This document shows, piece after piece, positions 2,972-46,390 of a DNA stretch of 64,000 nucleotides. This DNA comes from an uncultured Candidatus Saccharibacteria bacterium (GTDB taxonomy: Bacteria; Patescibacteriota; Minisyncoccia; Phycocordibacterales; Zambryskibacteraceae). Location: NCBI GenBank assembly GCA_964509605.1, contig CAZDXF010000002.1:89514-153513 (forward strand), in the 5' to 3' direction. The position numbers were made by a program, and so were the translations under genes. Each line of letters begins with the position of its first letter. The first letter of the stretch is position 1. The notes under the pieces are model-generated. The model was given only the letters and a program-made list of their open reading frames with translations, made no database searches and was not told the DNA's origin.

Positions 2972-3243
2972 CTCAACTGGTTAGAGCACCCGCCTGTAGA
3001 TAATTGCAGCTTTTTATCGAAAGATAGATTGAAACTCTCTGGGATAACGGTGAAGGCTAAGTTTACCAATCGGTGAATATGCGAATACCGTGGGAACTCG
3101 TCATTATTAGACGAGAGCGCCGTAGAGACTAGATACCAGAGCGCCTAACAGGAAACTTAAGGTGAAGATATAGTCCACGCCATTATGAAAATAGTGGATC
3201 ACGTGCACGCGGGAGGTTGCCGGTTCAAGTCCGGTCGGTCGCG
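2962..3243 (+). tRNA. tRNA-Asp (anticodon GUC) interrupted by a 208-nt group I intron in the anticodon loop
   Basis: 5' exon GCGATCG-TA-GCTC-AACTGGTTA-GAGC-A-CCCGC-CTGT (2962-2997). 3' exon CAC-GCGGG-AGGTT-GCCGG-TTCAAGT-CCGGT-CGGTCGC-G (3206-3243). Spliced loop CTGTCAC gives anticodon GTC; G73 and G10 fit Asp identity; the G3:C70 pair argues against Ala. Confidence 0.8.
2998..3205 (+). ncRNA. Group I self-splicing intron (compact, tRNA-type; no internal ORF)
   Basis: 5' exon ends in U pairing with an IGS GCAG (P1); intron ends in G. R-like GAGACTAGA and exact S-element consensus AAGATATAGTCC form P7 (GACTA/TAGTC). A GAAA-tetraloop hairpin TATCGAAAGATA is present. Confidence 0.8.
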
Positions 3244-4845
3244 CATCAAGGGACGGAGTGAGGCGAAAGCTTCACTCTGTCTTTGTTTATCAAGGGTTTT
3301 TTCCAGTTCTAACCGTTTATATTCTTTTTCTATCGCTGGATAGTGATTTTGAATTGGAATAAACCATTCGTTAGGCAAAATAACGAGATTTCCGTCTTTT
3401 AGCGTGTAGTTCTGACCGAGTGCAGACAGTATCTCTCTTTTGGTCTCAAGACCGCCTTTACGGAACTCATTGAGAGCGTGGCAGGCAAAGATAAAGGTTT
3501 TCTCTGTGAGCTCAATCCAGTTCTCGGCTCTTTTCTCTGTGTCTCTCATTCTCTGGGATATTTCAGCCATCTGGCTTTGTAGTATTTTTCTTTCCTTCAA
3601 GAACTCCTCATCACTTATAAGCTCTCGGTATCTCATCTTGGTGAGGGTATCAAGCTGTTTTTGAGTATCAGCCAGTGTTTTGTGTTGGGTTTCGTATATA
3701 CGGGTCCTTTCCTCTATTTCCTTATCATTGTTTTTATTGAGTATCTCCAGAGCCCAGTCCTTGAATTGAGGAAGTATGGTTATTTTGGCAATCTCTTTTT
3801 CAATCTCTTCCTCAACTTTGCCTACAGGGACATATTTCTTCTGGGTGCATACGCAACCTTTCTTCCTTCTTGTGCAGTAGTAATACACGAAGGTTTTTAC
3901 TTCTCCTGTTTTCTTTATGATTTTTGTTTTCTCAATGGCTGTAATTGCACTCCCGCACTCGCCACACCTTATAATCCCAGTAAAAGGAAACTCGTGGGTC
4001 TTTGGTCTCGGCTTACCATCTCTACCAAGAAGCATTTGAACTCTGTCATACTCCTCAAGAGTAATCATTGGTTTGTGTTTACCTTGATATGTCCGTCCTC
4101 TGTATTGGAACAAGCCCGCATAGAATGGGTCTGTGAAGATGCGGTAAATAGTGCTTCTTGAAAGAGGTTTGCCACCCCTTCTTTTCATTTTCCTTGTTTG
4201 AAGACCCCACTCGTTAGTTGCGATTTCAAGTATTTTTGGAGGTGTATAGTTTCCAGTAAGCATAAGGTCCCACATCTTTCTGATGAGAGAAAATCTCTCT
4301 GGGTCATCTGTGATGTAGTTTTCTCCTCGGGCTTCTATTTTGGTATTCAAATATCCCAAAGGAGCTAAAATGGGAGCTTGTCCTTTCTCAAGCTTGCTAT
4401 CAATACCTCTTCGCACACCTTTCTTTAGGTCCAAGATAAACTGATTAGCAGAACCGCTCTCTACACTCAAAAGGAGAGCGTTGTCATCTGGTTTATATTC
4501 ACGATTGATTGTTCGGATAGATTTGATGATGCTTTGTTGTAGGAGCCATTGGATTTTTCCGCTATCAACTGGATTTCTGGATAAGCGGTTAATCTCCCAG
4601 CACAGGATGCCGTTCGCTTCTCCCGTCTCAATCCTCCTCAACATTTCATCAAAGATGGGTCGGTTATTTGGTTGCTTTGCAGATTTTGCCTCCGAAAGTA
4701 TTTCAACAATTTCCAGTCCAGCATCTTTGGCTAGTTTTGAAATATGATTTGTCTGGTCTCCTATGGATTGGACCTGTCTATCTTCGCTCTCTGATGATTT
4801 ACGAGCGTAGAGAAAGTATTTTATTGTTTCAGTGTCATTTTTCAT
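3199..4845 (-). CDS. Large serine recombinase (phage-type serine integrase)
   Basis: N-terminal resolvase catalytic domain (YARKSSESEDRQVQSIGDQ with catalytic Ser); recombinase domain; zinc ribbon CGECGS...C..C; C-terminal coiled coil. The last ~15 codons are antisense to the tRNA 3' exon. Confidence 0.85.
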   Translation of the reverse strand: MKNDTETIKYFLYARKSSESEDRQVQSIGDQTNHISKLAKDAGLEIVEILSEAKSAKQPNNRPIFDEMLRRIETGEANGILCWEINRLSRNPVDSGKIQWLLQQSIIKSIRTINREYKPDDNALLLSVESGSANQFILDLKKGVRRGIDSKLEKGQAPILAPLGYLNTKIEARGENYITDDPERFSLIRKMWDLMLTGNYTPPKILEIATNEWGLQTRKMKRRGGKPLSRSTIYRIFTDPFYAGLFQYRGRTYQGKHKPMITLEEYDRVQMLLGRDGKPRPKTHEFPFTGIIRCGECGSAITAIEKTKIIKKTGEVKTFVYYYCTRRKKGCVCTQKKYVPVGKVEEEIEKEIAKITILPQFKDWALEILNKNNDKEIEERTRIYETQHKTLADTQKQLDTLTKMRYRELISDEEFLKERKILQSQMAEISQRMRDTEKRAENWIELTEKTFIFACHALNEFRKGGLETKREILSALGQNYTLKDGNLVILPNEWFIPIQNHYPAIEKEYKRLELEKTLDKQRQSEAFASLRPLMRDRPDLNRQPPACT

Positions 4846-6291: not shown

Positions 6292-8475
6292 TTAACTGTT
6301 ATTAAACTGTTTATCAGTATCATTTTCTTCCTCTGTGTTTTTCACCCCACTCTCTATTTCACTATTTTTATTGGTTTCAGAAAGCTGATATAGGGAGGAG
6401 GGGAAAATCATCATTTTGCGTTTGTCATTTGGGTCCTGTTCTTGAACGATAAGCCCTGCTGTCTCCAGCATAGGAAGTATCTGTTGTCGTAGCTGATGGC
6501 TATCAAGCATCCTTCCATACACCTCAAAATGTTTCTCAAGGAGCTCTTGGCGGGATAATCCAAGCTTGCCTGTAAGCTCTTCAAATACTTCGTTTCTGCC
6601 ATCATTCTTCGCCTCCCAAGCGGGTAGGATGACCTCTTTGTAGAGATTGTAGATGTAGGGTGGCAGGTTGAGCTCTTGGCTGACGGCTATCTTGTCCCAG
6701 AGCTTGAAAGCTTGATTGATGTCATCTTCATTGGCGATGATTGTGGACCCACTTCTTTCTCTCCACCAGACATTGAGAAGTGCAAACGATTTTATGAGAG
6801 ACAGAAGACGTTTGATGTCTCTTTGGTGTCTTGGTTTGAGCGTCTTGTTATTCCTCAAGAACCTTTCCTTGATTGTTTCGTGTGAGGCGATGTTTATATC
6901 TCTGATACCTTCCAGTTTGATGGCACGGATACGCTCTTTGAGTAGGGCTCGGTCTGGGTTTTCATCAAGCCAACTCACAAAACTCTCACTGTCTGCCTCT
7001 TTTCTGATTGTAGCGGTAATGCCTTGTTGTATTTTGTCTTGATTAACTTCTGGAGAAAGAAGTAAAAATCTCGTTGCTTCTTGCTCATCAATTTTTAGCC
7101 CTGCGGTGCAGAAGATGACCGATGGATAACCTCGCAAAAGAATGTTCTTTGTTTTCATCCCGAACTTCTGCGATTTATCAGTTATCTTCAAAGTAATCTC
7201 TTTCTTGTCGTGAGATAGGAGCGGTCTCAATCTGGCGAGGAGCTCATTGTGTGGCTGGTCCAGAAAGATAAGTATCTTGTGGGATAGGTCTACTAAGTAG
7301 CCATTCTTCTCTTTGTCGTATTGACCCGCATCGTGGAAGAAGGCGGTTGGAGAGCAGTAAGCAATCTCCATCACATCGTCTTGTGGGAATAGGCGGGCAA
7401 TCTCGGTTGGTATGTAGCTTTTACCTGTTGATGATGGGGCGTTGTAGCTGATGTTGAACTGCGAGTTCTCTGTATACGCTGATAGCTGACAGAGAAATGT
7501 CGCCAGCTTATTTTCTGCATCGTATTTAATGGTAAGACCGAGTGTCTCAATGAGTTTCTCGGAACTTATCGGAGCGAACTGGGCGGTATCAATTTTCTCT
7601 GGATACTCTTTTGCATATTTCTCAAACAAGTCATCAGCGGACCTTCCGAGTTTTATGATGTAATCGGTAATGTCTCCGTGTTCTCCAACTTCTTCTGGTA
7701 GCGTAATGATATAGGTCTCGTTTCCACCATTTTCCACCATTTTCGCCACACGCTCCGCTCCTTTCTTTCCAGCTTCGTCATTGTCAAAGCAGATGTAGAC
7801 CTTACTACCGTTCAGTATCTTTTTAACCCATTCTTCCTTGAAGGTCATCGCTCCGTGGGTAGAAGTGATTGCTGGCACTCCTTTAGCAAGTAGTAGTAAG
7901 CGGTCTAGCTCACCCTCACAGATTACGATTATTTTGTTCGCTTTTTCCGCAATCTCCCAATCATAGAGCTGTGCTTCTACTCCTTTCGGATAAGTTATTT
8001 TTTCATTGCCGAAAGCTGGGTCCTGTCGCAATTTGAAGAAGACATAATTGCCATAGACATCCTTAATAGGGATGGTAATCCACGGTTTGCGATAGAACTG
8101 TCCGTAGCCGATTTTGTATTCGTCTATCAGTGCATCAGTAAGTCCTCGTTTATGTAGATATTCTCTTATGCTTGGAGGTAGTGCTTTATGGCACTTCTCT
8201 ACAAGTTCTGCTGTAAATACATTTGTCTTGCGGGTTCTGGCTTCTGCTGTGTCGCCGAAATGTTTAGCTAATGTAGACAGGTTTCCTTTCTCTCCGCATT
8301 TCTTACAGTCATATTGTCCTGTCTCTGTGCTGAAATACAGGTGAGCTTCTTCGCCCTTACTATCCTTGTCGCAATCGTTGAAGAGGCATTTACTAATAAG
8401 CTCCTTACCACTCTCACGAAAGGGGATGCCTTTCTCGGTGAGATATTCTCGGATGTTAGTTTTAGTTAGGTTCAT
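6292..8475 (-). CDS. DNA primase-type replication protein (DnaG-like Zn finger + TOPRIM + P-loop NTPase)
   Basis: N-terminal CLFNDCDKDSKG..H..YDCKKCGEKG zinc-binding motif; TOPRIM IIVICEGELD...ICFDNDEAGKKG; Walker A APSSTGKSY. Confidence 0.75.
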   Translation of the reverse strand: MNLTKTNIREYLTEKGIPFRESGKELISKCLFNDCDKDSKGEEAHLYFSTETGQYDCKKCGEKGNLSTLAKHFGDTAEARTRKTNVFTAELVEKCHKALPPSIREYLHKRGLTDALIDEYKIGYGQFYRKPWITIPIKDVYGNYVFFKLRQDPAFGNEKITYPKGVEAQLYDWEIAEKANKIIVICEGELDRLLLLAKGVPAITSTHGAMTFKEEWVKKILNGSKVYICFDNDEAGKKGAERVAKMVENGGNETYIITLPEEVGEHGDITDYIIKLGRSADDLFEKYAKEYPEKIDTAQFAPISSEKLIETLGLTIKYDAENKLATFLCQLSAYTENSQFNISYNAPSSTGKSYIPTEIARLFPQDDVMEIAYCSPTAFFHDAGQYDKEKNGYLVDLSHKILIFLDQPHNELLARLRPLLSHDKKEITLKITDKSQKFGMKTKNILLRGYPSVIFCTAGLKIDEQEATRFLLLSPEVNQDKIQQGITATIRKEADSESFVSWLDENPDRALLKERIRAIKLEGIRDINIASHETIKERFLRNNKTLKPRHQRDIKRLLSLIKSFALLNVWWRERSGSTIIANEDDINQAFKLWDKIAVSQELNLPPYIYNLYKEVILPAWEAKNDGRNEVFEELTGKLGLSRQELLEKHFEVYGRMLDSHQLRQQILPMLETAGLIVQEQDPNDKRKMMIFPSSLYQLSETNKNSEIESGVKNTEEENDTDKQFNNS

Positions 8476-8677
8476 CTTGTTTAATGTTGTTTATAAGTTG
8501 TTGTTGGTCCTTTGAGATTTGCTCGTATTCTTTGTGGGTCATCGGCGTGTAGACGATAGACATCAACCGCAAGAGCTTGATGCCTTTGTCATAAGCATCT
8601 TCTCTGCTGATTTCTTTTCCAAAATGGCTCTTGTAGAGAGCTTGGAACTTTGCGATGTCTTCGTCTGCCAAAACCAT
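8462..8677 (-). CDS. Hypothetical small protein
   Basis: 71-aa ORF whose stop overlaps the primase start by 14 nt. Confidence 0.35.
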   Translation of the reverse strand: MVLADEDIAKFQALYKSHFGKEISREDAYDKGIKLLRLMSIVYTPMTHKEYEQISKDQQQLINNIKQDEPN

Positions 8678-8679
8678 AA

Positions 8680-9099
8680 CTATTCTGAATAGAGTTTATT
8701 TTTCAGTGCCTTGAGATGGTCAAAGAACGACCTTGCTTTGACTTCTAATCGGTCCGAGAAGTAGCGGTCTGCCACCTCTTCAATCCCATCTGCTTTCTGG
8801 AAGATAAAGAGGGCTTTTCTTGGGTTCTCTTTGTCCACGGATAAAAGCACAAAACCCGCACACAAAAGTGCGGTGGACACGCCGAGGTCATAGGTGGTCC
8901 ATACCACCGATGGGTCATCAAGTGGAATGTATCTCCACTCCTCGTCTCCAGATGACTTCCTTACTTTCTTATTTGTCATAGTAATTTGAGGTTTACTGAT
9001 AAACCAAAAAAGCCAACAAGTGTCGTCTTGTCGGCGTTGTGCGTTTGGAGATAAACAAAAAACCAAAGCAACAAACGCCAGTTCAAAACTGACATTCAT
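8680..9099 (-). CDS. Hypothetical protein with N-terminal hydrophobic/signal segment
   Basis: 139-aa ORF; MNVSFELAFVALVFCLSPNA signal-like start. Confidence 0.35.
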   Translation of the reverse strand: MNVSFELAFVALVFCLSPNAQRRQDDTCWLFWFISKPQITMTNKKVRKSSGDEEWRYIPLDDPSVVWTTYDLGVSTALLCAGFVLLSVDKENPRKALFIFQKADGIEEVADRYFSDRLEVKARSFFDHLKALKNKLYSE

Positions 9100-9260
9100 T
9101 GCTTTGGTCTCTTTAGTCGCCCATTAGACGGGCGAATTACCTATAAATCCTCTGCAAGTTTTTCCACCCACCATTCCCATAAAACGGGTATGCTTGGGTT
9201 TCAAAGATATTTAGCTTTCAAGGTGCATAGTAATTATAGGTGCTCTTGATTGCGTGTCAA

Positions 9261-10121
9261 CTACTTTGCTATCGTCTTGAAATCTACCCCTCCTTTCTGG
9301 GAGATGCTAAAAACATTTTTAGTTCTACATTTATGGCAAGTTTTATGTCCTCCTGCTTGAAATTCATCTAACAACTTCATAATTTCCTGTTCAGAAGTAT
9401 AAGTCCCAAGCCATCTACTACACTCTACACATCTCCAAATAAGCTCTTTTCTATCTTTTAATAAAGCTTTCACACCCTCTTCGTAGATTTCCTCTATCGT
9501 CTTTTTAACAGTATAGAAAATATCTTCCAACTTCTCTTTGTTGTTGATTACTATAAAGCTAGGAAAATAACCTCCTCCTGATGCATAAACCTCTCCGCTT
9601 TCATCCTTCTCAAAATCTACTTCAAGAGTTTCTTCAATCTGAATAGCTCCAGAAAAATCTGAAATTTTTCTTAAAATCTCATTACCGTATTTCTTTTCAT
9701 TAAATTTTTTAATATCGGCATTTCCTCCTGATATTAAGCTTCCTAAAATTTCTATAAGCTCCCTTCTGTATACTTCGTCTGAAAGCTTAAATCCATAGAG
9801 GTTATTTTTTGCGTCTGATATAAACCTGACTATCTCGCTTTTTTTCGGAGTTATATCAAAAAACTTTATCTTATCGTAGTCCTCACGGTGCGTGTCTTTC
9901 CAGTTCTCATATTCCAAAACCCCCTGCCTTTCCAAAGATAGAAATCCTTGAGCAATGTCAGATTTAGCCATCTCACCAAATAGTTTTGGAAGAAATTGGT
10001 CAGAGAGCGTGAGTGTCTCATTAGGTTCGGTGGGAAGGAAGATAACCAGATTAGGTCTTGTCTCTATAAACTCCAATATCTTTTCAGCCAGAAAGAGGTT
10101 TCTATTTTGAGTAATTGTCAT
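9261..10121 (-). CDS. Hypothetical protein with C-terminal zinc ribbon
   Basis: 286 aa; C-terminal CVECSRW...CHKCRTKN; divergent from the R-M operon. Confidence 0.4.
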   Translation of the reverse strand: MTITQNRNLFLAEKILEFIETRPNLVIFLPTEPNETLTLSDQFLPKLFGEMAKSDIAQGFLSLERQGVLEYENWKDTHREDYDKIKFFDITPKKSEIVRFISDAKNNLYGFKLSDEVYRRELIEILGSLISGGNADIKKFNEKKYGNEILRKISDFSGAIQIEETLEVDFEKDESGEVYASGGGYFPSFIVINNKEKLEDIFYTVKKTIEEIYEEGVKALLKDRKELIWRCVECSRWLGTYTSEQEIMKLLDEFQAGGHKTCHKCRTKNVFSISQKGGVDFKTIAK

Positions 10122-10289
10122 AGTAATTTTCTCAAATTTACCCCTTTTGATGACACTTCACAATAGTGAGTAGGAAGAGGGGCAAAAATACCTTAAATCT
10201 GCTATTCTTTCATAGTAAGAGAAAAGACCATTTACGAAGCCATTTTTAGGTAAATCGTGGATGTCTACTGCGGAAACATTACAATTACT

Positions 10290-12092
10290 ATGAAAAACGA
10301 ATATCAAAAAGTAGAACAAGCAAAAGGTCGTCCGCTTCTCCAGTGGGTAGGCAAGAAACCACTTGAGAGTGTGCAGTTCTATCCCGCCCAAGAAATTGAA
10401 GTATATGGCGACAAGACCGCAAAGGATTTCAATAAACTATTTTGGGGAGATAATCTCCAAGTGCTCTCTCATCTTCTCAAGGACTATCGTGGAAAAATTG
10501 ATTTGATATACATTGACCCTCCGTTTGATAGCAAGGCAGATTATGTAAAAAAAGTAAAAGTTCGTGGGGAGCAGGTTGAAGGCATTGGACAAGGTCTACT
10601 TGAGGAAAAACAATACTCTGACATTTGGGAGAGAGATGAATACCTCCAATTTATGTATGAGCGATTATCGCTAATGAGGGAACTTTTATCTGAAACAGGC
10701 AGTGTCTATGTTCATATGGACGAGAAACGCTCCCACTATGTGAAAATCATCCTTGATGAAGTATTTGGTATTGAGAACTTCCAAAGAGAGATTGTGTGGG
10801 ATATTACAGTTTTGTCTGGTTTTAAGACGCAGGCAAATAACTGGATACGAGGACACGACACGATACTTTTTTACTCAAAATCACCTAACAAAAACTTCAA
10901 TAAACTATTTCTTCCACACCGAAAAGAGTATTTGGACCGTTTTAACAAAAAAGATAAAGATGGACGGCTCTACTTTGATGGACGAGGAGAAATTGTGTAT
11001 TTGGATGATGTCGTAAAAAAAGGTAAAAACATTGGAGATGTATGGAGTGATGTTATGTCCTTCCAACAAATACCCACTGCAAAAGAAAGAGTTGATTATC
11101 CTACTCAAAAACCTGAAGCTTTGCTTGAACGCATCATCAATGCTTCGTCAAAGGAGGGTGATATTGTTGCAGATTTTTTCTGTGGTTCTGGAACTACTCA
11201 AGTGGTGGCTCAAAAGCTCGGACGAAGATGGATTGGGTGCGACATAAACAAGGGAGCCATTCAGACATCTACAAAGCGTCTCAATCAAATCATTGAGGAA
11301 CAGCAGAGAGAGAAAATAAAGAACTTCAAGGGTTCTTACGGCTTCAAGGTTCTCAATGTGAACGATTATGATGTGTTCAAGAATGAGCTTATTGCGAAGG
11401 ATATTGTTATGGAGATGTATGGAGTGGAGCAAATAAAGCGAAGCTACTTTGACGGGCTGATGGGTAGAGATTTGGTGAAGATAATGCCGATGAACAGAGT
11501 GCTCAACAAAATGGATATAAGGAGTATCTTGAAAAACATCCAAGACAACATAAGCAACTTCACTGTGAAGACGAAATCAAAAGCGAAGGAAGCCGTATAC
11601 GAAGAGAAAGTCCGCATTATCTGTTCTGGAGTTGAATATGATGTCCCTCACTTCTTGAGAAAGGAAAATAAAACTGGAGTAGTGGTGGAAATCAACGATG
11701 TGCTCTCTGCTACGAAGGAACTTGTTTTCAAGGAATACCCAGAGTCAAAAATTGAGCTCAAGGTTAAGAATAAGAAGCTCTCTGTTGATATAAAAGAGTT
11801 CTACTCTCCGCTTCTGATGAGAAAGCTTGAGATTGAAAACCAGAAGGCGCTTAAAAAAGAAAGCCAGACGAAGGTAAAGGACTTCAAGCAAATCATTGAT
11901 AGCGTAGCTATTGATGTGGACTACAACGGCAAGCTGTTCAACGCAGAGATAATGGACCTGCCAGACAAGAAGGAGGTTATCAAAGCCAAGTATTCTTGGG
12001 ATTATCCAAAGAAGGGCAAATATACTGTCGCCATAAAAATTGTTGATGTGCTCGGAGAAGAATACTTTGAGACATTTGATGTAAACGCATAA
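10290..12092 (+). CDS. Type III restriction-modification methyltransferase (Mod), beta-class N6A/N4C MTase
   Basis: Motif IV IDLIYIDPPFDS precedes motif I DIVADFFCGSGTT (beta-class order). Likely ATG at 10290 (track start 10257 is GTG). Immediately followed by a Res-like gene. Confidence 0.8.
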   Translation: MKNEYQKVEQAKGRPLLQWVGKKPLESVQFYPAQEIEVYGDKTAKDFNKLFWGDNLQVLSHLLKDYRGKIDLIYIDPPFDSKADYVKKVKVRGEQVEGIGQGLLEEKQYSDIWERDEYLQFMYERLSLMRELLSETGSVYVHMDEKRSHYVKIILDEVFGIENFQREIVWDITVLSGFKTQANNWIRGHDTILFYSKSPNKNFNKLFLPHRKEYLDRFNKKDKDGRLYFDGRGEIVYLDDVVKKGKNIGDVWSDVMSFQQIPTAKERVDYPTQKPEALLERIINASSKEGDIVADFFCGSGTTQVVAQKLGRRWIGCDINKGAIQTSTKRLNQIIEEQQREKIKNFKGSYGFKVLNVNDYDVFKNELIAKDIVMEMYGVEQIKRSYFDGLMGRDLVKIMPMNRVLNKMDIRSILKNIQDNISNFTVKTKSKAKEAVYEEKVRIICSGVEYDVPHFLRKENKTGVVVEINDVLSATKELVFKEYPESKIELKVKNKKLSVDIKEFYSPLLMRKLEIENQKALKKESQTKVKDFKQIIDSVAIDVDYNGKLFNAEIMDLPDKKEVIKAKYSWDYPKKGKYTVAIKIVDVLGEEYFETFDVNA

Positions 12093-12096
12093 TCAT

Positions 12097-14640
12097 ATGG
12101 ATAGTTTTTTCTTACAAAATATCCAGAAACAAGTAGCTGACTGGCGAGCTGGTGGCTACGATGGCGTGCAGAAAGAGACAGAGACGATACTAAACCACAT
12201 CCGAAGGGTTGCTTTCTTGCACGAGCCACAGATAGAGGCGTTGGAGACATACATCTACCTCAAAGAGATAGTTGGCAACAAGCCATCCGTTGAGGTGTTC
12301 AAGAAGTCCTTTGAAAGTGAGTTGGATTTTATCCGTGCTCTGGGTCTTTCTGATAAAGAGGCGTTTGAACTTGCTTACGATAAAAAGAAGGACGAAAAGA
12401 TACAAGCAATTCTGGATGAGAAGTTCGGGACCTCCGACTATGCAAATCAGGTCTACGCTCTCACTATGGGTTCGGGCAAAACGATTTTGATGGCGGTGAT
12501 GATGCTGTATGATTTTGTTCTTTCCTTCTATCACAAAGATGACGAACGCTTTGCCAAGAACGCCCTTATTTTTGCTCCAGATACAACAATCATAGAGAGC
12601 TTGAAAGAGATAAAGACATTTGATTACTCACGGGTTCTGCCGAGAGAGTATGAGAACATCATTTTGAATATAAAGTATCACTATCTTGAAAGCACAGACA
12701 CCGCTCTGGCTCCAGTCGGAAACTATAATGTCATTGTCTCTAACTCACAGAAAATAATCCTCAAGACAAGAAATGGTAATGGCGATAATCATTCAGCACG
12801 GCTTTTTGGAGACAGAAATGAGATGGAGAAACGAGAGGTTGAAAATATGCGTTTGCAAGCCATTCGCCAACTCTCATCTCTCCAGATTTTTGTAGATGAA
12901 GCTCACCACTCATATGGAAAGACACTTGAGGGAACTTTGAAGAAGACGAGACAAACGATTGATTATCTTCACAAGCATACTCCTCTTGTTTCCGTTATAA
13001 ACCTCACTGGAACGCCTTATGTAAACAATAAGATGATTTCCGATGTGGTCTATCACTTCGGTCTTAAAGCAGGTATTGAAAAAGGTATTTTGAAGCAGGT
13101 CCGCATTTTGGATTATGGAACAGTAAGGTCCCAGAAGTTCGTTGAGGAAGTCGTTGATACCTTCATTTCTGAATACGGGACGAAACGGCTTGAAGGGCGA
13201 TTGCCGAAGATAGCTTTCTATGCACCAAGCATTAGTGATTTGCGAGAGGATTTGAAGCCGAAGCTGGAGCGTATCCTTTCTGAAAAAGGTATGTCTACAC
13301 AATCCATTTTGGAGTATCACACCGAAGCAGAAGATAATGCCGATGATTTCAAACAGCTTGATACAGCCGAAAGCAAAAAGCAGTTTATTCTTCTTGTCGG
13401 CAAAGGGACCGAAGGATGGAACTGCCGTTCTCTTGTCTCTGTGGCTCTGTATAGGAAGCCAAAGAGCACAATCCTTGTCCTACAATCAACTACAAGATGT
13501 CTGCGTGCCATTGGAGATAACTCCACTCGTGCCAGCATCTTCTTATCAAAAGACAATTATAAAATCCTTGATAAAGAGCTCAAGAATAACTTTGCCTCAA
13601 GCATCAGTGAGCTGAATGCTCAAGACCAGAAAATGGTTGAACACACTCTTGAGGTTGAGAAGCGGACTACCATCAAAGTAAAGAAGGTTCTCAAGGATAT
13701 TTTGGCTGTTAAGGAAACAAGCCCAGAGAAAATAAAAATTGATTTCAAGAAGTTTGATGCTGGACAGTATCAATCATTTGTAAGTGAGGGAGGTGTATTT
13801 ATCGGAGACGAAGGTAAGGCAAGATATTCAGAAGCTCGTGCTAAAGGAAGAATAAAAGATAGAGCAGATTTTACCTTTTATGAAATAGCCGAAATAATAA
13901 ACCGCTATACTCATCTACCTTGTTTATCCATAGAAGCTATTATCACTGGGAGTGGAAAGAAGCGTGAGCAATTTGTTGAGATGGTAAACGAGACCCCAGC
14001 TCTGCTTACATTTGTTATTCAAGAAATACTCAACAGTGCTTTCAAATATGAAGAGAAGACCGAAACAGTGGAAGAAGAGCTTGAGCTGACTAAACTGTTT
14101 CCATTCAAAATCAGTGTTCAGCAAGGCAGAAGTGGACTTGTAGTATATAGAGAAGCCGAAGCAGAAGAAGGGCGAAAGGGTCGTCTTGGTTTCCACATCA
14201 ATCCATACGCATTTGATAGCGGTGATGAGAAGGATTTGTTCAGATACTTGAGGGATGTTCTTGATAAGAAGGAGGTTATCAAGGATATTTATTTCACAGG
14301 TGCTCGTGTTTGCTCGGACCCAAGCAGAACTGATTTCTATTTTGAATACTGGAGCCCAGAACAAAACAGAGTAGCCAGATACTTTCCAGATTTTCTTATT
14401 GAGACAAACAAACGCTTTATTGTTGTAGAGACAAAGGGTGGAGATGAGAAAGCGGATTATGAGGCAAATAAGAAATCATATAAGGGTAAAGTGGAAGATG
14501 TAAGAAATGAAGTGTTTGCGAAAGAGCTTGGATTTAACGAGTTTCAGAGCATAAATAAAAACTTTGAGTATCGCATTATCTTTGATGCTACTCTCCAGCG
14601 AGAACAGGTGAGATTGTATGAGGAGCTAATAAATAGATAA
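12097..14640 (+). CDS. Type III restriction enzyme (Res): SF2 helicase + C-terminal PD-(D/E)xK nuclease
   Basis: Walker A TMGSGKT, DEAH box FVDEAHHS, motif LTGTPY; C-terminal YFPDFLIETNKRFIVVETKG nuclease motif. Confidence 0.8.
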   Translation: MDSFFLQNIQKQVADWRAGGYDGVQKETETILNHIRRVAFLHEPQIEALETYIYLKEIVGNKPSVEVFKKSFESELDFIRALGLSDKEAFELAYDKKKDEKIQAILDEKFGTSDYANQVYALTMGSGKTILMAVMMLYDFVLSFYHKDDERFAKNALIFAPDTTIIESLKEIKTFDYSRVLPREYENIILNIKYHYLESTDTALAPVGNYNVIVSNSQKIILKTRNGNGDNHSARLFGDRNEMEKREVENMRLQAIRQLSSLQIFVDEAHHSYGKTLEGTLKKTRQTIDYLHKHTPLVSVINLTGTPYVNNKMISDVVYHFGLKAGIEKGILKQVRILDYGTVRSQKFVEEVVDTFISEYGTKRLEGRLPKIAFYAPSISDLREDLKPKLERILSEKGMSTQSILEYHTEAEDNADDFKQLDTAESKKQFILLVGKGTEGWNCRSLVSVALYRKPKSTILVLQSTTRCLRAIGDNSTRASIFLSKDNYKILDKELKNNFASSISELNAQDQKMVEHTLEVEKRTTIKVKKVLKDILAVKETSPEKIKIDFKKFDAGQYQSFVSEGGVFIGDEGKARYSEARAKGRIKDRADFTFYEIAEIINRYTHLPCLSIEAIITGSGKKREQFVEMVNETPALLTFVIQEILNSAFKYEEKTETVEEELELTKLFPFKISVQQGRSGLVVYREAEAEEGRKGRLGFHINPYAFDSGDEKDLFRYLRDVLDKKEVIKDIYFTGARVCSDPSRTDFYFEYWSPEQNRVARYFPDFLIETNKRFIVVETKGGDEKADYEANKKSYKGKVEDVRNEVFAKELGFNEFQSINKNFEYRIIFDATLQREQVRLYEELINR

Positions 14641-14644
14641 AGCT

Positions 14645-15469
14645 ATGGACGAGGAAAAGAAAATAACTAAAAAGAAGGCAGTCATTTATACCATTGTAAT
14701 TGGGGTTGTCGCTTTTATAGCTGGAACTTTTATCGTGGATTACTCGGAATACGAAGAATACGGCTCTTATAGCACTGACAACTGCAATGTTTTAGCTTTT
14801 TCTGTAAACGGCTACTTAAGCACTTATATGCCACAGAACCCAGAAGAGTATATGACAGACATTTCTTCATCAGAGGATATTGTGGATGGCATACAAATTG
14901 CACAAGATGACCCAGATATAAAAGCAGTCATATTATCAGTGGACTCTGGTGGAGGAGATGGTGTTGCTGGAGAAGAGGTTGCTAATGCATTGAAATGGTT
15001 GAGTAAACCCAGTGTCGCAGTGATAAGAGGGTTAGGTGCTTCCTCGGCATATTGGGCATCTACTGGAGCTGACAAGATATACGCATCCAAGATATCCGAT
15101 GTCGGAAGTATCGCTATCACAATGTCTTATCTTGATGAGACAAAAAAGATAGAGCGTGAGGGTTATCAATACACAGAACTGTCATCGGCAAAGTATAAGG
15201 ATTTAGGAGACCCAAGCAGACCTCTAACTGCCGAAGAGAGAGCGATAATAATGTCTGATTTGCAGAAGGCACACAAAGTTTTTGTTGAAAGTGTTTCTGT
15301 AAACAGAGGTTTGGATATAAAAGAGATTGAAAAATTGGCAAACGGGCTGACCTATATAGGCGAAGATGCTTTGAGATATGGGTTGATTGATGAGATTGGA
15401 GATTTTCTATCTGCTAAAAAGTATATTGAGGAGCAAATAGGAGAAAAAGCAGAGATTTGCTGGTATTGA
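14645..15469 (+). CDS. S49-family serine peptidase (SppA/ClpP-like), membrane-anchored
   Basis: N-terminal TM helix; AVILSVDSGGGDGVAGEEVANAL and GLIDEIGDF S49 hallmarks; starts 4 nt after Res stop. Confidence 0.7.
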   Translation: MDEEKKITKKKAVIYTIVIGVVAFIAGTFIVDYSEYEEYGSYSTDNCNVLAFSVNGYLSTYMPQNPEEYMTDISSSEDIVDGIQIAQDDPDIKAVILSVDSGGGDGVAGEEVANALKWLSKPSVAVIRGLGASSAYWASTGADKIYASKISDVGSIAITMSYLDETKKIEREGYQYTELSSAKYKDLGDPSRPLTAEERAIIMSDLQKAHKVFVESVSVNRGLDIKEIEKLANGLTYIGEDALRYGLIDEIGDFLSAKKYIEEQIGEKAEICWY

Positions 15470-15990
15470 TAAACACAATGACAAAACTTTACATACTAAT
15501 TGGAATACTTATTGCTCTCGGGGTTGTAATTGAACTCTTTAGGAGCGGAGGCAAAGAAGAGAGAAGGTATCAATATAAGCAGAAGAACTTTTTTATGTCT
15601 CGGGCAGAGCACGAGTGCTACGATGCCCTTACTATTGCCGTTGGAGAGAAGTATCACATCTTTCCTCAAGTTCATCTGCCGTCAATCGTAGACAATAAGG
15701 TTGTGGGTCAAAATTGGCACGGAGCCTTCCGCCACATAAGCCAGAAGTCGGTTGATTTCGTTTTGTGCGACAAAGCTTACATATCACCGAAACTTGCTAT
15801 TGAGCTTGATGATAGAACTCACGAAAGAAGGGACCGAAAGGAAAGGGATGTTGAGGTTGAGAGGGTCCTAAAGGATGCTGAACTACCTCTTTTGAGATTG
15901 GAAAATCACGGACGATTTAACCCCAGCGAGCTTACTGAAAAAATAAATACCATCCTAAACAATGGTGAAAACAAGGGTGGGGTGAAATAA
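15457..15990 (+). CDS. DUF2726/DUF559-like (Vsr/PD-(D/E)xK-fold) domain protein with N-terminal TM helix
   Basis: Motif pattern VDFVLCD...AIELDDRTH typical of the DUF2726/Vsr-like fold; overlaps the S49 gene by 13 nt. Confidence 0.55.
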   Translation: MLVLINTMTKLYILIGILIALGVVIELFRSGGKEERRYQYKQKNFFMSRAEHECYDALTIAVGEKYHIFPQVHLPSIVDNKVVGQNWHGAFRHISQKSVDFVLCDKAYISPKLAIELDDRTHERRDRKERDVEVERVLKDAELPLLRLENHGRFNPSELTEKINTILNNGENKGGVK

Positions 15991-15992
15991 AG

Positions 15993-16184
15993 ATGGTTCA
16001 TATAAACCCAGAGACAGTTCAAGAGTTCAAACAAACAATTAAAGAGGAGTATGGAGTTGAGTATTCTGATAAGGAAGCTTGGGAAGCTATGCACAACCTT
16101 GTCGGATTTTTTGACCTACTTTTGAAAATGGATAGGAGACAAAACCCAGAGCTTTATAAAAGAAAAGATACTAAAGATGGATGA
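15993..16184 (+). CDS. Hypothetical small acidic protein
   Basis: 63-aa ORF packed between neighbours (2-nt gap upstream, 8-nt overlap downstream). Confidence 0.35.
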   Translation: MVHINPETVQEFKQTIKEEYGVEYSDKEAWEAMHNLVGFFDLLLKMDRRQNPELYKRKDTKDG

Positions 16185-16968
16185 TTATCTCGTTATATAC
16201 ACAGATGGCTCTTCTGCTCCAAAACCAAGACGGGGTGGAGTTGGTTTCAGAATGATTTTCCCAAGTGGAAAAGTTAGGGATTTTTCTCCGTATGGATATT
16301 CTGGAGCGACTAATAATGAGATGGAGTTGCAAGCGTGCATACTGTCTTTAAGAGAGGTGGTAAAACTTGATGATTTGGAAGGAGCAAAGGGTGTCGTTGT
16401 ATGCACTGACTCTCAATATGTTGTTAGCAACTATAAAAACGCAATGTTTTCTTGGGTAAATCAGAAATGGATGAGAAGCAATGGAGAGCCCGTATTAAAT
16501 GCACAGCAGTGGAAAGAGCTTTTGAGATTGATGAAGCGTATAGGAGACCGTTTTCGCATTTATGTCTCTTTTGAAAAAGTAGAAGCCCATTCGGGAGTTG
16601 AGGATAATGAAGCGGTAGACAAGCTTGCCAAGCGTTCTCGCAAGGGTCCATTATCTACAATTAAAATATCGGTGAGCAATGTTCGCAGAAGTAAAACAAA
16701 AAGTAAAACTATAAAAGGTAGTATTAGGGGAGAAGGTCAACGGCTTCGTATTCGTGTCGTAAGCGGGAGTTGGTTGAGTGTGCAAAAATTGTATCGCTTG
16801 AGGTGTGAGGTGCTTTCAAAGAAAAGTGAATATTTCAGTAAAATGGATTTTATTCTTTCAGAGGAGATGATGAGAGCTGGTCATATTTATGATGTTGTCT
16901 TGATGGACGGGCTGGACCATTGCCGTGTAAAAAAGTTAATAGGCGAAGTTAAAACCCCTACTAAATAG
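16177..16968 (+). CDS. rnhA: Ribonuclease HI domain fused to a ~110-aa basic C-terminal domain of unknown function
   Basis: RNase H catalytic residues in YTDGS, NNEMELQA, CTDSQYV and EAHSGVEDNEAVDKLA; the C-terminal half is Lys/Arg-rich with no recognisable domain. Confidence 0.7.
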   Translation: MDDYLVIYTDGSSAPKPRRGGVGFRMIFPSGKVRDFSPYGYSGATNNEMELQACILSLREVVKLDDLEGAKGVVVCTDSQYVVSNYKNAMFSWVNQKWMRSNGEPVLNAQQWKELLRLMKRIGDRFRIYVSFEKVEAHSGVEDNEAVDKLAKRSRKGPLSTIKISVSNVRRSKTKSKTIKGSIRGEGQRLRIRVVSGSWLSVQKLYRLRCEVLSKKSEYFSKMDFILSEEMMRAGHIYDVVLMDGLDHCRVKKLIGEVKTPTK

Positions 16969-17053
16969 TGAAATCAAAGGTGGGTATATAGATGGTTGTA
17001 TCATTTCCTCTCTCAAATCCAGTTCTGATGTTGTTCACTAGCCCGCGCAAGCG

Positions 17054-17091
17054 AAAATCCGAGTATCGTGTGATACTCGGATTTTTGTTTT
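17054..17091 (+). terminator. Rho-independent terminator
   Basis: AATCCGAGTATC-GTGT-GATACTCGGATT followed by TTTGTTTT. Confidence 0.7.
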
Positions 17092-17142
17092 GCAAAAAGG
17101 CTCAATATTCTATAATATTTAAGCCGTTCTTTTGAATTATGT

Positions 17143-17218
17143 GCCAATGTAGCTCCCCGAAGGAGTCGCTATGCGCGACTCTACGGGGCAGGCAGTAGAC
17201 TTTTTAGTACACTGCCTG
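17143..17218. repeat. Orphan 13-nt copy of the tRNA-Thr 5' end followed by two perfect hairpins
   Basis: gccaatgtagctc (17143-17155) equals the first 13 nt of the tRNA at 17240. Followed by CCCCG-aag-GAGTCGC-tat-GCGACTC-ta-CGGGG (17155-17188) and CAGGCAGT...ACTGCCTG (17189-17218). Confidence 0.6.
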
Positions 17219-17239: not shown

Positions 17240-17495
17240 GCCAATGTAGCTCAGTTGGTAGAGCACCCCCATGGTGGATCGTATGATTCTGCCCAGCCAA
17301 GAGGCAACTTTTGGATGAATCCCGAATAACGGTTAAAGTCCTATTAAGATGGATCAGACCGTGGCGCCAAGGCGCCCGAACGACTGACAAGGGTTCGCCC
17401 AGCGCGAAAAGATACAGTCTAGTCTTCTCATATAAAGAAAAGAGAAGTGTAAACGAAGGGGGAGGTCATCGGTTCAATCCCGATCATTGGCTCCA
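17240..17495 (+). tRNA. tRNA-Thr (anticodon GGU) interrupted by a 180-nt group I intron; CCA encoded
   Basis: 5' exon GCCAATG-TA-GCTC-AGTTGGTA-GAGC-A-CCCCC-ATGGT. 3' exon AA-GGGGG-AGGTC-ATCGG-TTCAATC-CCGAT-CATTGGC-T-CCA. Spliced anticodon loop ATGGTAA. Confidence 0.75.
17276..17455 (+). ncRNA. Group I intron (very compact, 180 nt), homologous to the intron at 2998..3205
   Basis: Exon-terminal U pairs with an IGS GCCA. P7 pairing GACTG/CAGTC within R-like cgACTGAcaa and S-like AAGATACAGTCT. Shares the ATAACGGT.AA motif with the first intron. GGCGCC-AA-GGCGCC hairpin. Ends in G. Confidence 0.65.
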
Positions 17496-17505
17496 AGATT
17501 ATTCT

Positions 17506-17580
17506 GGCCACCTTAGCTCAGTTGGTAGAGCGACGGTATCGTAAACCGTAGGTCCGCAGTTCGATCCTGCGAGGTGGCTC
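17506..17580 (+). tRNA. tRNA-Thr (anticodon CGU)
   Basis: GGCCACC acceptor paired with GGTGGCT; anticodon arm ACGGT-ATCGTAA-ACCGT; T-arm CGCAG-TTCGATC-CTGCG. Confidence 0.85.
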
Positions 17581-26828: not shown

Positions 26829-27245
26829 TTGTTGTATAATCAAAATATGAAAGGATATAAAGAAAATATTGAGAAACTTACTTTAGAAAACAATAATTTT
26901 AGAAAAGTTTTATACACCTCAAAACACAGCCAGCTTGTGCTTATGTCTTTAAAGCCAAAAGAAGAGATTGGAAAAGAAATTCACGAAGATAACGATCAAT
27001 TTTTCAGGTTTGAAAGCGGTGTAGGAGAAGTTTTGATTAATGAAGTAGTTTATCAAGTTGCAGATGGAGATTGTGTGGTCGTGCCGGCTGGAGCGGAACA
27101 CAATGTTATAAACACATCTGAAACAGAAATGTTGAAGTTTTATACAATATATTCACCAGCCCACCACAAGGACAAAACTATGCATAAAACAAAAGAGGAG
27201 GCAGAAAGTGATAACGAGCATTTTGACGGAATAACTAGCGAATAA
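26829..27245 (+). CDS. Cupin-domain protein
   Basis: VVVPAGAEHNVINTSETEMLKFYTIYSP cupin beta-barrel motifs. Confidence 0.6.
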   Translation: MLYNQNMKGYKENIEKLTLENNNFRKVLYTSKHSQLVLMSLKPKEEIGKEIHEDNDQFFRFESGVGEVLINEVVYQVADGDCVVVPAGAEHNVINTSETEMLKFYTIYSPAHHKDKTMHKTKEEAESDNEHFDGITSE

Positions 27246-27317
27246 TTTTTCCAAACAAAAAGGAGCTGGTCAGGCTCCTTTTTCTGCACATGGCAGATGT
27301 TTAACGACCGATTTGGT

Positions 27318-29126
27318 TTACGCGAGAGTCTGGCTTTCAACTAGCTCGCGATATTTTTCAGAGGTCTCCATGAGTTCATCATGGGTCCCTTGAGCAACCA
27401 CCTGCCCCTTGTCAAAGAGGAAGATGGTATCAACATCTCGCACTGTTGAAAGCCGATGGGCGATGATGATCGTCGTCCTTCCTTGAGAGGCATTGTGAAG
27501 CGATTCCTTGATGAGTCTCTCGACCTTGCCGTCAAGACTCGAGGTGGCCTCGTCAAAGATGAGAATCGCTGGATTCTTGGCTAGAGCTCTGGCGATCCCG
27601 ATCCTCTGGCGTTCTCCGCCAGAAAGCTGAACACCATTCTCTCCGACCGGAGTGTCCCATCCCTTGGTCAAGCGATGGGAGAACCGATCTATGAGTGAGA
27701 GTTTGGCAAGCCCATCTAGATATTCATCCGACAGACTATCTCTATCCCTCGCTCCAAAGAGGATGTTGTAACGCAAGGTTTCGTCAAAAAGCGAAACCAT
27801 TTGCTCAACCACCCCCACATGTTCGCGGAAATGGTGAAGATCAAGAAGCCGAATATCGTGACCGTCTACGAAGATTTGCCCTTGATCTGGGTCGTATCCT
27901 CGCAAAAGAAGATTCACGATCGTTGACTTCCCAGCTCCTGACTCTCCCACAAGAGCGACCCGCGTTCCACTTTTGATGGAAAAGTTCACTTGAGAAAGGG
28001 CAGGAAGTTTAGGCTTAGTCGCCCTTACTTCTTCCTTTTCCTCAAGAGTCTCGTCCACCTCTATGTAGCGAGTGAGTGGGTAGGTGAAAGATACATCACG
28101 GAACTCAATATCTCCGTGGAATCTGTTTGGCCGAACCGGATTGCCAATCGTCTTGACCGCCGGTTCAACAGAAAGAACGCTGAGGTATTTACTCACCGAG
28201 TTTATCTGAAGCATCCATCGACGGTGAATCTCACTCAACATTCCCAGTCCAGCAACTGCTTGACTTGTCCACATTGTCATGATGACGAGGTCGCCGGGCT
28301 GGTGGTCTCCACGATAGATGAGAAGAATACCAGTTACAAGAACTGCGAAACGCAGAGCGTGTGAGATCAGGTTTCTCTCGGCCGCTATCTTAACGAAATC
28401 CAACCAGAGCTTCTTCAGGAAATTGGCATAACCATCCAACCGACTGCCATGTTCGTCATGGATTCTTTCTTCTTGCGCATTGAATTGTACAAGAGAAAGA
28501 TTACCAACAATTTCAAGGTGACGCTTCCCGATAAGCTGGCTTCGGTCTTCCGACTCTCTCAGTCGGCCTCTGAACTTCTTGTTAACATAGATTGAAACCA
28601 GTAAGAAGAGGACGACACCGACGAGGGCTATCATACCGACTCGCCACTCAAAAAAGAGAAGAGCGATTACTGCCGCCAAAGTTTGAAGTATGATGGGCAG
28701 CACTTCGTAGAGCACTGAATCGACAAGGTTTCTTATTGAACCTTGCCCTTTGTTTATGACACCTATGGTGAGCCCCGAATGCTGGCTCCTATGTTGACCA
28801 ACTGATAGCGACAACAATTTGTCCAATGTCTTCTTGGACAAATAGTGCGCAACATTCCAGTCCAAGTGGCGAATCTCGTTCCTTGCTCTGAAGTACGCTA
28901 GTCCAATGGTTGAAACACCAATGGCAAAAGAAAGCCAAGCATACTTCATCACATCACTTAGTGGTGCCTGCTCGGTGACAAGGTTAATGATCTTCCCGAA
29001 GATGTACGGGAAAGCCAGATCAATCACCTCGCTTACCATTAGCAAGACCAGTGCAACAGCGAAGTACTTCTTGAATGGGGAGAAAATACCCCAAACTTTC
29101 CTCAAGAACTCCCGTTTGTCTTCCAA
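27318..29126 (-). CDS. ABC transporter, fused permease/ATP-binding exporter (MsbA-like)
   Basis: 6-TM N-terminal domain; Walker A GESGAGKST, signature LSGGERQR, Walker B ILIFDEATS. Confidence 0.85.
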   Translation of the reverse strand: MEDKREFLRKVWGIFSPFKKYFAVALVLLMVSEVIDLAFPYIFGKIINLVTEQAPLSDVMKYAWLSFAIGVSTIGLAYFRARNEIRHLDWNVAHYLSKKTLDKLLSLSVGQHRSQHSGLTIGVINKGQGSIRNLVDSVLYEVLPIILQTLAAVIALLFFEWRVGMIALVGVVLFLLVSIYVNKKFRGRLRESEDRSQLIGKRHLEIVGNLSLVQFNAQEERIHDEHGSRLDGYANFLKKLWLDFVKIAAERNLISHALRFAVLVTGILLIYRGDHQPGDLVIMTMWTSQAVAGLGMLSEIHRRWMLQINSVSKYLSVLSVEPAVKTIGNPVRPNRFHGDIEFRDVSFTYPLTRYIEVDETLEEKEEVRATKPKLPALSQVNFSIKSGTRVALVGESGAGKSTIVNLLLRGYDPDQGQIFVDGHDIRLLDLHHFREHVGVVEQMVSLFDETLRYNILFGARDRDSLSDEYLDGLAKLSLIDRFSHRLTKGWDTPVGENGVQLSGGERQRIGIARALAKNPAILIFDEATSSLDGKVERLIKESLHNASQGRTTIIIAHRLSTVRDVDTIFLFDKGQVVAQGTHDELMETSEKYRELVESQTLA

Positions 29127-40834: not shown

Positions 40835-41002
40835 ATAGTATACATTTTATTTTTTAATAAGCAATGGTCGGAAATAGGCGGATTTGTAGCTATTTTTGGG
40901 TCCTTTTTAACCTATTGACAAAAAATATAGATTTGGTATAATGAAAGGTAGAAGTTCGTCGCAGTTTAATTCCAATCAGCCCCTCGGGGCAAGGAGGACA
41001 GT

Positions 41003-41689: not shown

Positions 41690-41707
41690 CGGGAACTGCA
41701 GAAGATT

Positions 41708-41740
41708 AGCGCGGAGAGGTTCACACCTCCCGCGCTTTTT
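41708..41740 (+). terminator. Rho-independent terminator
   Basis: AGCGCGGAG...CTCCCGCGCT followed by TTTTT. Confidence 0.6.
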
Positions 41741-41827
41741 GCTTGGAAACTTTTCTTTTGCACAAAGATATGTAAAATATTGGCACAAATATTATTAATA
41801 GAGTAATCGTGTTAGACTTGGATACTT

Positions 41828-42154
41828 ATGAAAAAGAAAACATCAAAACAAGTACAAAAAACACCGATTTCTCCTCTAGGAGACAGAGTTCTTATAAAGG
41901 AGGTGAAAGAAAAAGAAAGCCAAGGAAGGACTGATTCTGGAATTTATCTTCCTGAAACGGCAAAAGAAGATCGTGGAGCAAAAAAGGGTGAAGTCGTTGC
42001 TGTTGGCTCTGGAAGATACGAAGATGGAAAACTTATTCCTCCGACAGTTAAAGTGGGCGACAGAGTTCTTTTCCAATGGGGAGATAGCTTTTCATATAAA
42101 GGGGAAGACTATGTAGTTGTCCGTGAAAGCGAAATAATCGCAATTATCAGCTAA
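41828..42154 (+). CDS. groES: Co-chaperonin GroES
   Basis: ISPLGDRVLIKEV mobile-loop region, GroES fold; immediately upstream of groEL. Confidence 0.85.
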   Translation: MKKKTSKQVQKTPISPLGDRVLIKEVKEKESQGRTDSGIYLPETAKEDRGAKKGEVVAVGSGRYEDGKLIPPTVKVGDRVLFQWGDSFSYKGEDYVVVRESEIIAIIS

Positions 42155-46339: not shown

Positions 46340-46343
46340 AAAA

Positions 46344-46374: not shown

Positions 46375-46390
46375 CTGCACTTCTTCTTCA

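Follow-up and report, generated by a model that had tools for sequence, protein, structure and literature searches.

The 64,000-nt window analyzed here, which is the whole stretch of DNA taken from contig CAZDXF010000002.1 of an uncultured Candidatus Saccharibacteria bacterium, carries a Type III restriction-modification (R-M) system, mod and res, followed on the same strand by four tightly packed genes. These encode an S49 (SppA-type) peptidase, a DUF2726 nuclease-fold protein, a protein of 63 residues (orf63) and an RNase HI domain fused to a C-terminal OB fold (RNaseH-OB). An initial annotation had proposed that these four genes constitute one uncharacterized defense module with the RNase H as effector. 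The four open reading frames (ORFs) are indeed present on the + strand as described, and Pfam confirms the S49, DUF2726 and RNase_H assignments. Comparison with related loci leads nevertheless to another reading, which we hold with slightly better than even confidence: the region is a mosaic of independently assorting genes and not one system. The six-gene string would represent the variable arm adjoining an integrated element of the serine-recombinase/primase type. The window is gene-dense (coding ~87% by a longest-ORF estimate), has a GC content of ~39%, and its database relatives carry the labels Patescibacteria or Paceibacterota. All comparisons rest on metagenome contigs obtained by pattern search, which are designated by L numbers.

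A first line of evidence is provided by RNaseH-OB itself. Its full-length homologs are 60-80% identical in Patescibacteria, with 63-76% for the closest relatives, and the complete fusion is also found at ~40% identity in Actinomycetota, Chloroflexota, Ignavibacteria, Planctomycetota, Verrucomicrobiota, Desulfobacterota and other phyla. Among the 80+ RNaseH-OB loci sampled (80 from species genomes, plus L002-L004), closest relatives included, not one contains an S49, DUF2726 or orf63 gene within 10 kb of the fusion, and no conserved neighbor of any kind was observed. A tyrosine integrase is found at 6 kb or less in 9 of 47 loci, and the flanks are mostly occupied by helix-turn-helix (HTH), transposase and resolvase-type genes, in a few cases by Type IIG R-M, Fic or IrrE genes. 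On these grounds, RNaseH-OB is an accessory gene that stands alone in variable or mobile regions and moves on its own. Reciprocally, the fusion is encoded in none of the 82 DUF2726 loci considered, 80 of which were added by a metagenome scan, and it is absent from the S49 loci examined (L085-L091 and L256-L258). Guilt by association, the check suggested by the initial annotation, supports DUF2726, S49 and orf63; the fusion never joins them outside this organism. Close packing in one string, downstream of an R-M system and on an island, can be cited in favor of a single four-gene defense system, as can a deletion scar in L256, described below, which suggests that the same block was formerly present in a second lineage. 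Set against the distributions above, these two points leave the proposal extremely improbable. A search of PADLOC-DB v2 at E<=0.1 returned no family for any of the four proteins. A known defense system was accordingly dropped as an explanation.

Natural variants of the same island in relatives provide the second line of evidence. Contigs L096, L105 and L140 carry the backbone genes of the window (Toprim primase, o71 and DUF5659) and mod-res, then DUF2726 directly, without S49; in L131, the same backbone and DUF2726 enclose unrelated genes. In these four contigs the primase N-termini are 58-81% identical and DUF5659 61-85% identical to their window counterparts. The identity of mod amounts to 82-83% (L096/L105), 72% (L256) and 57% (L140), and that of res to 82-83% (L096, L105 and L256) and 72% (L140). 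Contig L256, whose backbone genes are 81% identical to those of L105, can be aligned with window positions 10274-15495 at 75-81% nucleotide identity, hence over mod-res-S49. Behind its S49 gene, at L256 positions 7826-7850, six DUF2726 codons ('MTKLYIN*') precede 23 nt that, apart from two mismatches and two single-base gaps, match the window around its RNase H stop. Beyond this junction L256 continues with tRNA-Phe, tRNA-Arg, CYTH and different genes, the right flank of the window containing instead tRNA-Thr, DedA and prfB. L256 looks like a natural deletion of the segment from DUF2726 to RNaseH-OB, in a lineage that once possessed the same block, and this deletion variant keeps mod-res-S49. 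The R-M system and S49 thus persist without the remaining genes and, judging from the natural variants, S49, DUF2726, orf63 and RNaseH-OB are each dispensable to the R-M system. Since R-M is kept both in variants without S49 and in the variant without DUF2726 to RNaseH-OB, these genes appear to assort independently, and no obligate system is apparent.

For the DUF2726 protein, the association with defense genes is a real one. It scores 98.9 bits against Pfam PF10881 (gathering cutoff 24.7), with additional weak matches to DUF559 and MTES_1575, and residues D93, E109, D111, D112 and H115 are invariant in 21 sequences; a sequence search yielded no solved structural relative. The N-terminus is hydrophobic and is followed by a strongly basic stretch, from which a membrane-tethered, cytoplasmic nuclease-fold domain is predicted. 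Upstream genes were counted in the 47 loci offering at least 3 kb of upstream DNA. A Type III-like res or mod gene is present within a few genes upstream in 19 of them (16 of 42 once near-identical contigs are collapsed), mostly in the same direction. In the remaining loci, the products of the upstream genes include GmrSD, a 1025-aa AAA_21 protein, SNF2, SF1 and UvrD-type helicases, Schlafen/AlbA_2, an Eco57I-type methylase with PLD/SNF2, HNH and Fic proteins. As a rough control, a mod-like gene was found in three and a res-like gene in none of the 80+ RNaseH-OB loci. In 28 of 32 loci the gene preceding DUF2726 points in the same direction, the median gap being 15.5 nt, and a 4-nt ATGA overlap with DUF2726 is seen for four different types of upstream gene, res among them in L096 and L105. 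The cassettes terminated by DUF2726 frequently begin with an excisionase-type HTH gene. Downstream, no conserved neighbor exists; a tyrosine recombinase is encoded there on the opposite strand in nine loci, mostly with DUF488 beside it. DUF2726 is consequently the habitual last gene of R-M and other defense cassettes in Patescibacteria. Its most likely role, as far as sequence can suggest one, is that of a putative add-on DNA nuclease of the Vsr/restriction-endonuclease fold, acting at the cytoplasmic face of the membrane and expressed with whatever cassette stands upstream. The family has been placed in the PD-(D/E)XK superfamily, with unknown function and mobile-element neighborhoods (PMC3424549), and a DUF2726 restriction endonuclease (REase) fold has been reported fused to AbiJ N-terminal domains (PMC3710099).

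Two side observations were made at these DUF2726 loci. Large proteins without Pfam match are encoded directly upstream of DUF2726 in L102 (818 aa), L106 (695 aa) and L169 (752 aa), and are by their position candidate uncharacterized defense genes. In L092, just downstream of an R-M-DUF2726 cassette, a bAvd-like gene, a reverse transcriptase (RVT_1) gene and NYN-domain genes occupy positions 7991-9413 and look like a diversity-generating retroelement.

The S49 protein scores 105.1 bits against Pfam PF01343 (gathering cutoff 24.9) and 151.1 bits against the NCBIfam model SppA_dom (TIGR00706), whose equivalog cutoff is 155.45. Its catalytic domain is matched by Bacillus subtilis SppA (PDB 3RST) at 6e-25. 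Residues S133, K185, C47 and C272 are each conserved in at least 95% of 114 homologs; S133 aligns to the nucleophile region of 3RST, and the pairwise alignment leaves it ambiguous whether K185 corresponds exactly to B. subtilis K199. The single hydrophobic segment has a lysine-rich N-terminal flank and an acidic C-terminal flank. According to the positive-inside rule, these charges predict an extracytoplasmic protease domain, as in B. subtilis SppA. The protein would accordingly be an SppA-type signal-peptide peptidase with an intact Ser/Lys dyad, an outward catalytic domain and a housekeeping-type chemistry. This architecture with its membrane anchor, the match to B. subtilis SppA and the absence of capsid genes nearby led to the rejection of a prohead protease.

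Six S49-anchored contexts, picked only for long contigs, illustrate the variety of its neighbors. S49 stands immediately behind a Type III res gene in L256 and immediately behind a Type I hsdR gene in L258, in the latter case with an ATGA overlap and with an orf63-family ORF (E 1e-10) as next gene. In L090, it lies 4.7 kb from a Type III R-M system, with a Schlafen gene in between, and two genes upstream of an o62-primase-serine recombinase module; the 172-aa gene that follows it was considered as a divergent DUF2726 and ruled out. It directly precedes an SF1 helicase-WYL pair and a Schlafen gene in L257, adjoins methylases and a terminase in L087, and is found in a dnaG-rpoD context in L085. 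Its identity to the window protein remains at ~55-70% whatever the relatedness of the islands: the value is 70% both for L085, in its dnaG-rpoD context, and for L256, which carries the same island and shares no core genes with the window among the DNA compared. This divergence resembles the one expected for a host gene bordering a defense or mobile hotspot, and S49 is most likely a housekeeping-type SppA in such a position. The initial annotation had envisaged, as its alternative, sppA and rnhA housekeeping genes, which conserved core synteny away from mobile genes would have supported; relatives display instead variable contexts rich in mobile and defense genes. S49, DUF2726 and RNase H are each encoded only once in the 64-kb window.

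The third gene, orf63, has no Pfam family above threshold. It is nevertheless a real gene family, because a full-library search recovered 206 clusters at E<=1e-3. The orf63-family HMM also matches o71 (E 1.9e-4), the small ORF overlapping the primase start in the window. Comparable ORFs overlap the start of a Toprim primase or PrimPol gene in L090, L002, L096, L105 and L140, and such a small protein may form a conserved pair with the primase on serine-recombinase elements. In these elements, the family to which the window orf63 belongs is otherwise encountered ahead of the primase genes. Members of this family are also located behind S49 or DUF2726, and in L175 and L258 they are terminal, with no enzyme gene after them. 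A 63-aa ORF downstream of DUF2726 in L092 was considered as a conserved partner and discarded, being not detectably homologous to orf63.

The RNase H domain of the fusion scores 98.1 bits against Pfam RNase_H (cutoff 25.8). Residues D10, E50 and D78 are invariant in the alignment and D148 is conserved in at least 90% of the sequences. With Foldseek, the N-terminal 155 residues superpose on Escherichia coli RNase HI with a target TM-score of 0.80-0.84 at ~30% identity. The score against the NCBIfam rnhA equivalog PRK00203 is 91.2 bits for a cutoff of 160, and thus below the level of a housekeeping ortholog. The C-terminal domain, which the initial annotation had singled out for structure prediction, is a five-stranded beta-barrel superposing on known OB folds; this domain has no Pfam family and no sequence match in the PDB, and a literature search returned nothing relevant on RNase HI-OB fusions. 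With its intact active site and its OB fold, the protein would likely be held on single-stranded DNA, where it would remove RNA from RNA:DNA hybrids. A scan of IMG/VR found bare RNase H domains only (~30-37% identity), with no OB fusion and no DUF2726 of the Patescibacteria type, and a phage origin of either gene was dropped on this basis.

The packing of the string is a property of its own. Mod and res in tandem correspond to a Type III R-M system, and res is matched by Pfam ResIII although no PADLOC model matches it; the true start of mod is probably ATG 10290. The junctions given by the initial annotation from S49 onward with its res neighbor (a 4-nt gap, a 13-nt overlap, a 2-nt gap and an 8-nt overlap) are arithmetically exact for the longest frames. 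The 13-nt overlap does not survive, because all DUF2726 homologs begin with 'MTKLxIL', as does the public gene call of 170 aa; translation most likely starts at ATG 15478, leaving a gap of 8 nt behind S49. All five successive junctions of mod-res-S49-DUF2726-orf63-RNaseH measure at most 8 nt. Over the whole window, co-directional neighbors (48 pairs) are separated by a median of 50 nt, and in only 31% of these pairs is the gap no larger than 15 nt. The string is thus packed more closely than is usual locally (roughly 0.3^5). The same gene order was recovered on L001, an independent read-set assembly of the same organism. Downstream of the last gene, a terminator-like hairpin followed by a U-run has a folding energy of -29.8 kcal/mol (z -6.4), a value reached by none of 200 shuffled sequences. 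The six genes are probably co-transcribed up to this strong terminator.

Several of these observations weigh against a simple mosaic. R-M or defense-type genes lie within 5 kb of S49 in five of the six contexts above. The succession S49-DUF2726-orf63-like recurs in L175, L124 and L130, and the DUF2726 proteins of L175 and of L124/L130 fall on neighbor-joining branches other than that of the window. S49 and an orf63-like gene follow hsdR in L258, and five successive junctions of at most 8 nt suggest more than chance neighbors. DUF2726 is moreover 60-85% identical across Patescibacteria, which is unusual for a defense gene and fits a conserved hotspot flank as well as an effector. A portable 'tail module', consisting of the tethered DUF2726 protein and optionally of the outward S49 protease and an orf63-family protein, could be placed on the 3' end of many Patescibacteria defense cassettes, a possibility that we regard as doubtful. 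It would provide Type I, Type III and Type IV restriction and helicase-nuclease systems with a membrane-proximal second activity against incoming DNA. In its stricter form, also rather unlikely, S49, DUF2726 and the orf63-family protein together would be a portable accessory module of Type I and Type III restriction genes, serving as a membrane-based second line of defense in which the tethered nuclease would act inside, the protease outside and the small protein as a regulator, RNaseH-OB being excluded. This three-gene version is consistent with the succession shared by the window, L175, L124 and L130, with hsdR-S49-orf63-like and its ATGA overlap in L258, with res-S49 in L256 and with the overlapping res-DUF2726 pairs of L096 and L105. 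An S49-adjacent DUF2726 occurs in at least three neighbor-joining branches, and the AbiJ fusions and mobile-element surroundings cited above point in the same direction. Its members are however often absent, S49 being directly upstream of DUF2726 in just 3 of 82 loci (L175, L124 and L130) and two genes downstream of it in L166. L256 keeps R-M and S49 without DUF2726, and L257 has its defense genes downstream of S49 instead. The protease and nuclease domains would reside on opposite sides of the membrane, no PADLOC model matches, and both proteins are far more conserved than typical defense proteins. With such high conservation, such varied partner cassettes and each gene being dispensable, an obligate module is disfavored.

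The opposite possibility is a purely passive flank, in which sppA and DUF2726 would be resident chromosomal housekeeping genes with defense cassettes and integrative elements building up on their upstream side, and the four genes would have no part in defense or in the element. The conservation of S49 and DUF2726 speaks for it, as do the S49 identity values, which are independent of island relatedness, and the position of S49 at borders between core-like and defense-like DNA, with defense genes on either side. The dnaG-rpoD neighbors in L085, the core-like surroundings of DUF2726 in loci such as L113/L114 and a -10-like TATAAT motif in the res-S49 spacer of L256 can be added. An element boundary between the two genes would however hardly allow the ATGA overlaps of res with DUF2726 or of hsdR with S49. 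On the right, the window and L256 adjoin different chromosomal DNA, although the segment they share extends through S49 as far as the RNase H stop. Closely related islands differ by exactly the presence or absence of S49, and DUF2726 lacks a conserved downstream neighbor. Because of these overlaps with restriction genes and these differing flanks, a purely passive flank appears improbable. More improbable still is the proposal that orf63 and RNaseH-OB are what remains of the replication module of a second mobile element, in which orf63 would partner a primer-handling enzyme. The overlap of orf63-family ORFs with primase starts in the window and in five other contigs would be in line with this proposal, together with the 8-nt overlap between orf63 and RNaseH-OB and the location of the L002 fusion at 6 kb from an o66-PrimPol-serine recombinase module. 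The closest relatives of RNaseH-OB have no orf63-like gene upstream, and several orf63-like genes are terminal. The mosaic of independently assorting genes is, on balance, the reading retained.

Each component can be compared with a known counterpart. As in the 36K-type SppA of B. subtilis (3RST), one S49 domain stands behind a single N-terminal membrane anchor, and the nucleophile Ser and a conserved Lys are kept. The window protein differs by a score just under the SppA_dom cutoff and by the repeated location of S49 directly behind restriction genes in Patescibacteria, an arrangement that, to our knowledge, has not been described for SppA. The Pfam match and the invariant acidic and His residues of the DUF2726 protein are those of the Vsr/DUF559/DUF2726 branch of PD-(D/E)XK nucleases (Steczkiewicz et al. 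2012, PMC3424549), from which it departs by its short length (~165 aa), its N-terminal membrane anchor and its place as the last gene of varied defense cassettes. The first 155 residues of the fusion superpose on E. coli RNase HI and the DEDD residues are conserved; the extra C-terminal OB fold sets the protein apart. Eukaryotic RNase H1 possesses an N-terminal hybrid-binding domain; the fusion similarly contains an additional nucleic-acid-binding domain, but as a C-terminal OB fold. At the level of the locus, hotspots of the P2/P4 type house variable defense genes between conserved backbone genes of an element. The window, L096, L105 and L140 are comparable in this respect, with an R-M system between the backbone (primase, o71, DUF5659) and DUF2726, and L131 with other genes at the same place. 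They are distinguished by an element with a large serine recombinase and a Toprim primase, and by a distal conserved gene encoding a membrane-tethered nuclease-fold protein. PrrC is an accessory nuclease embedded in the EcoprrI hsd locus. DUF2726 recalls it as an extra nuclease-fold gene co-oriented with a restriction operon and translationally coupled in some loci; its fold is unrelated, it is not tied to a single R-M type, and no sign of latent-toxin behavior is seen for it. R-M-carrying genomic islands have been reported in Patescibacteria (PMC12455944).

The features of the element and of the string are collected in the table below.

Table. Features of the R-M island and of the adjoining gene string (window coordinates)
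Feature	Position	Strand	Length or start	Evidence
Large serine recombinase (Resolvase + Recombinase + Zn_ribbon_recom), one end of the integrated element	3199-4845	-		Pfam
Toprim-domain primase-like protein, element backbone	6292-8475	-		Pfam
o71, orf63 paralog overlapping the primase start	8462-8677	-	71 aa	orf63-family HMM
DUF5659 backbone protein	8680-9099	-		Pfam
Type III mod methyltransferase	10257-12092	+		PADLOC MTase_III 2e-71; Pfam N6_N4_Mtase 3e-53
Type III res, ResIII helicase domain	12097-14640	+		Pfam ResIII
S49 ORF	14645-15469	+	274 aa	Pfam Peptidase_S49 4e-30
DUF2726 ORF, longest frame	15457-15990	+	177 aa from TTG	
DUF2726 gene, probable start	15478-15990	+	ATG 15478	Pfam DUF2726 2e-28
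orf63, small protein of an element-associated family	15993-16184	+	63 aa	
RNase H fusion ORF	16177-16968	+	263 aa	Pfam RNase_H 6e-28
RNase HI catalytic domain of the fusion	16177-16647	+		Pfam, alignment, Foldseek
C-terminal OB-fold domain of the fusion	16648-16968	+		
Intrinsic terminator-like hairpin + U-run	~17046-17092	+		Sequence and folding energy

Homologs of the serine recombinase (35-49% identity) are found 8 kb from DUF2726 in L156/L157 and beside the S49 region in L090. No flanking direct repeat joins the tRNA-Met region on the left to the right end of the element; serine recombinases require none. An exact 42-nt direct repeat was noticed at 2056-2097 and 2205-2246. Its first copy starts inside the 3' end of the second tRNA-Met gene (2001-2074), and its second copy, 149 nt downstream, stands just ahead of a free-standing LAGLIDADG ORF (2309-2971). 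This pair looks like the att-type scar left when a small element was inserted or excised. On the other side of the string, an apparently non-coding gap of 540 nt 3' of the RNase H gene shows no Rfam family above threshold and contains the terminator and an interrupted tRNA-Thr gene. This tRNA-Thr(GGU), at 17240-17495 (+), is split in the anticodon loop by a 180-nt insertion. Only ARAGORN with its intron option detects it; neither the default tRNA scan nor the Rfam gathering search does, and the insertion matches no group I intron model at E<=1. A tRNA-Thr(CGU) gene follows directly (17507-17580), and a 13-nt copy of the 5' end of the interrupted gene (gccaatgtagctc) is also present at 17144-17156. 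Three paralogous small GIY-YIG-type ORFs are encoded in the window, at 24395-24766 (-), 56489-56749 (+) and 61443-61703 (+). All three match an 82-aa GIY-YIG gene of L003, one of the RNaseH-OB loci, and may be selfish endonuclease genes. Kilobase blocks of high GC content occur at 41001-42000 (0.545), 46001-47000 (0.516) and 27001-29000 (0.47), compared with ~0.39 for the window, and no rRNA or other Rfam family was reported in them.

With their tiny genomes, Patescibacteria are considered to depend chiefly on R-M for their defense, as discussed in PMC12455944. A highly conserved gene for a membrane-tethered nuclease-fold protein, closing many different defense cassettes, is a possible marker for defense hotspots and for uncharacterized defense genes in these uncultured bacteria. 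The DUF2726 tail gene could itself be an unrecognized accessory defense component, and the 'tail module', if true, would represent a new kind of accessory component in a lineage largely without CRISPR. The locus also illustrates that, in compact genomes, close packing by itself says little about which genes form a system. Finally, the RNase HI-OB fusion is an undescribed architecture, thinly spread over many phyla on mobile DNA, and suggests a route by which RNase H may be directed to single-stranded DNA intermediates.

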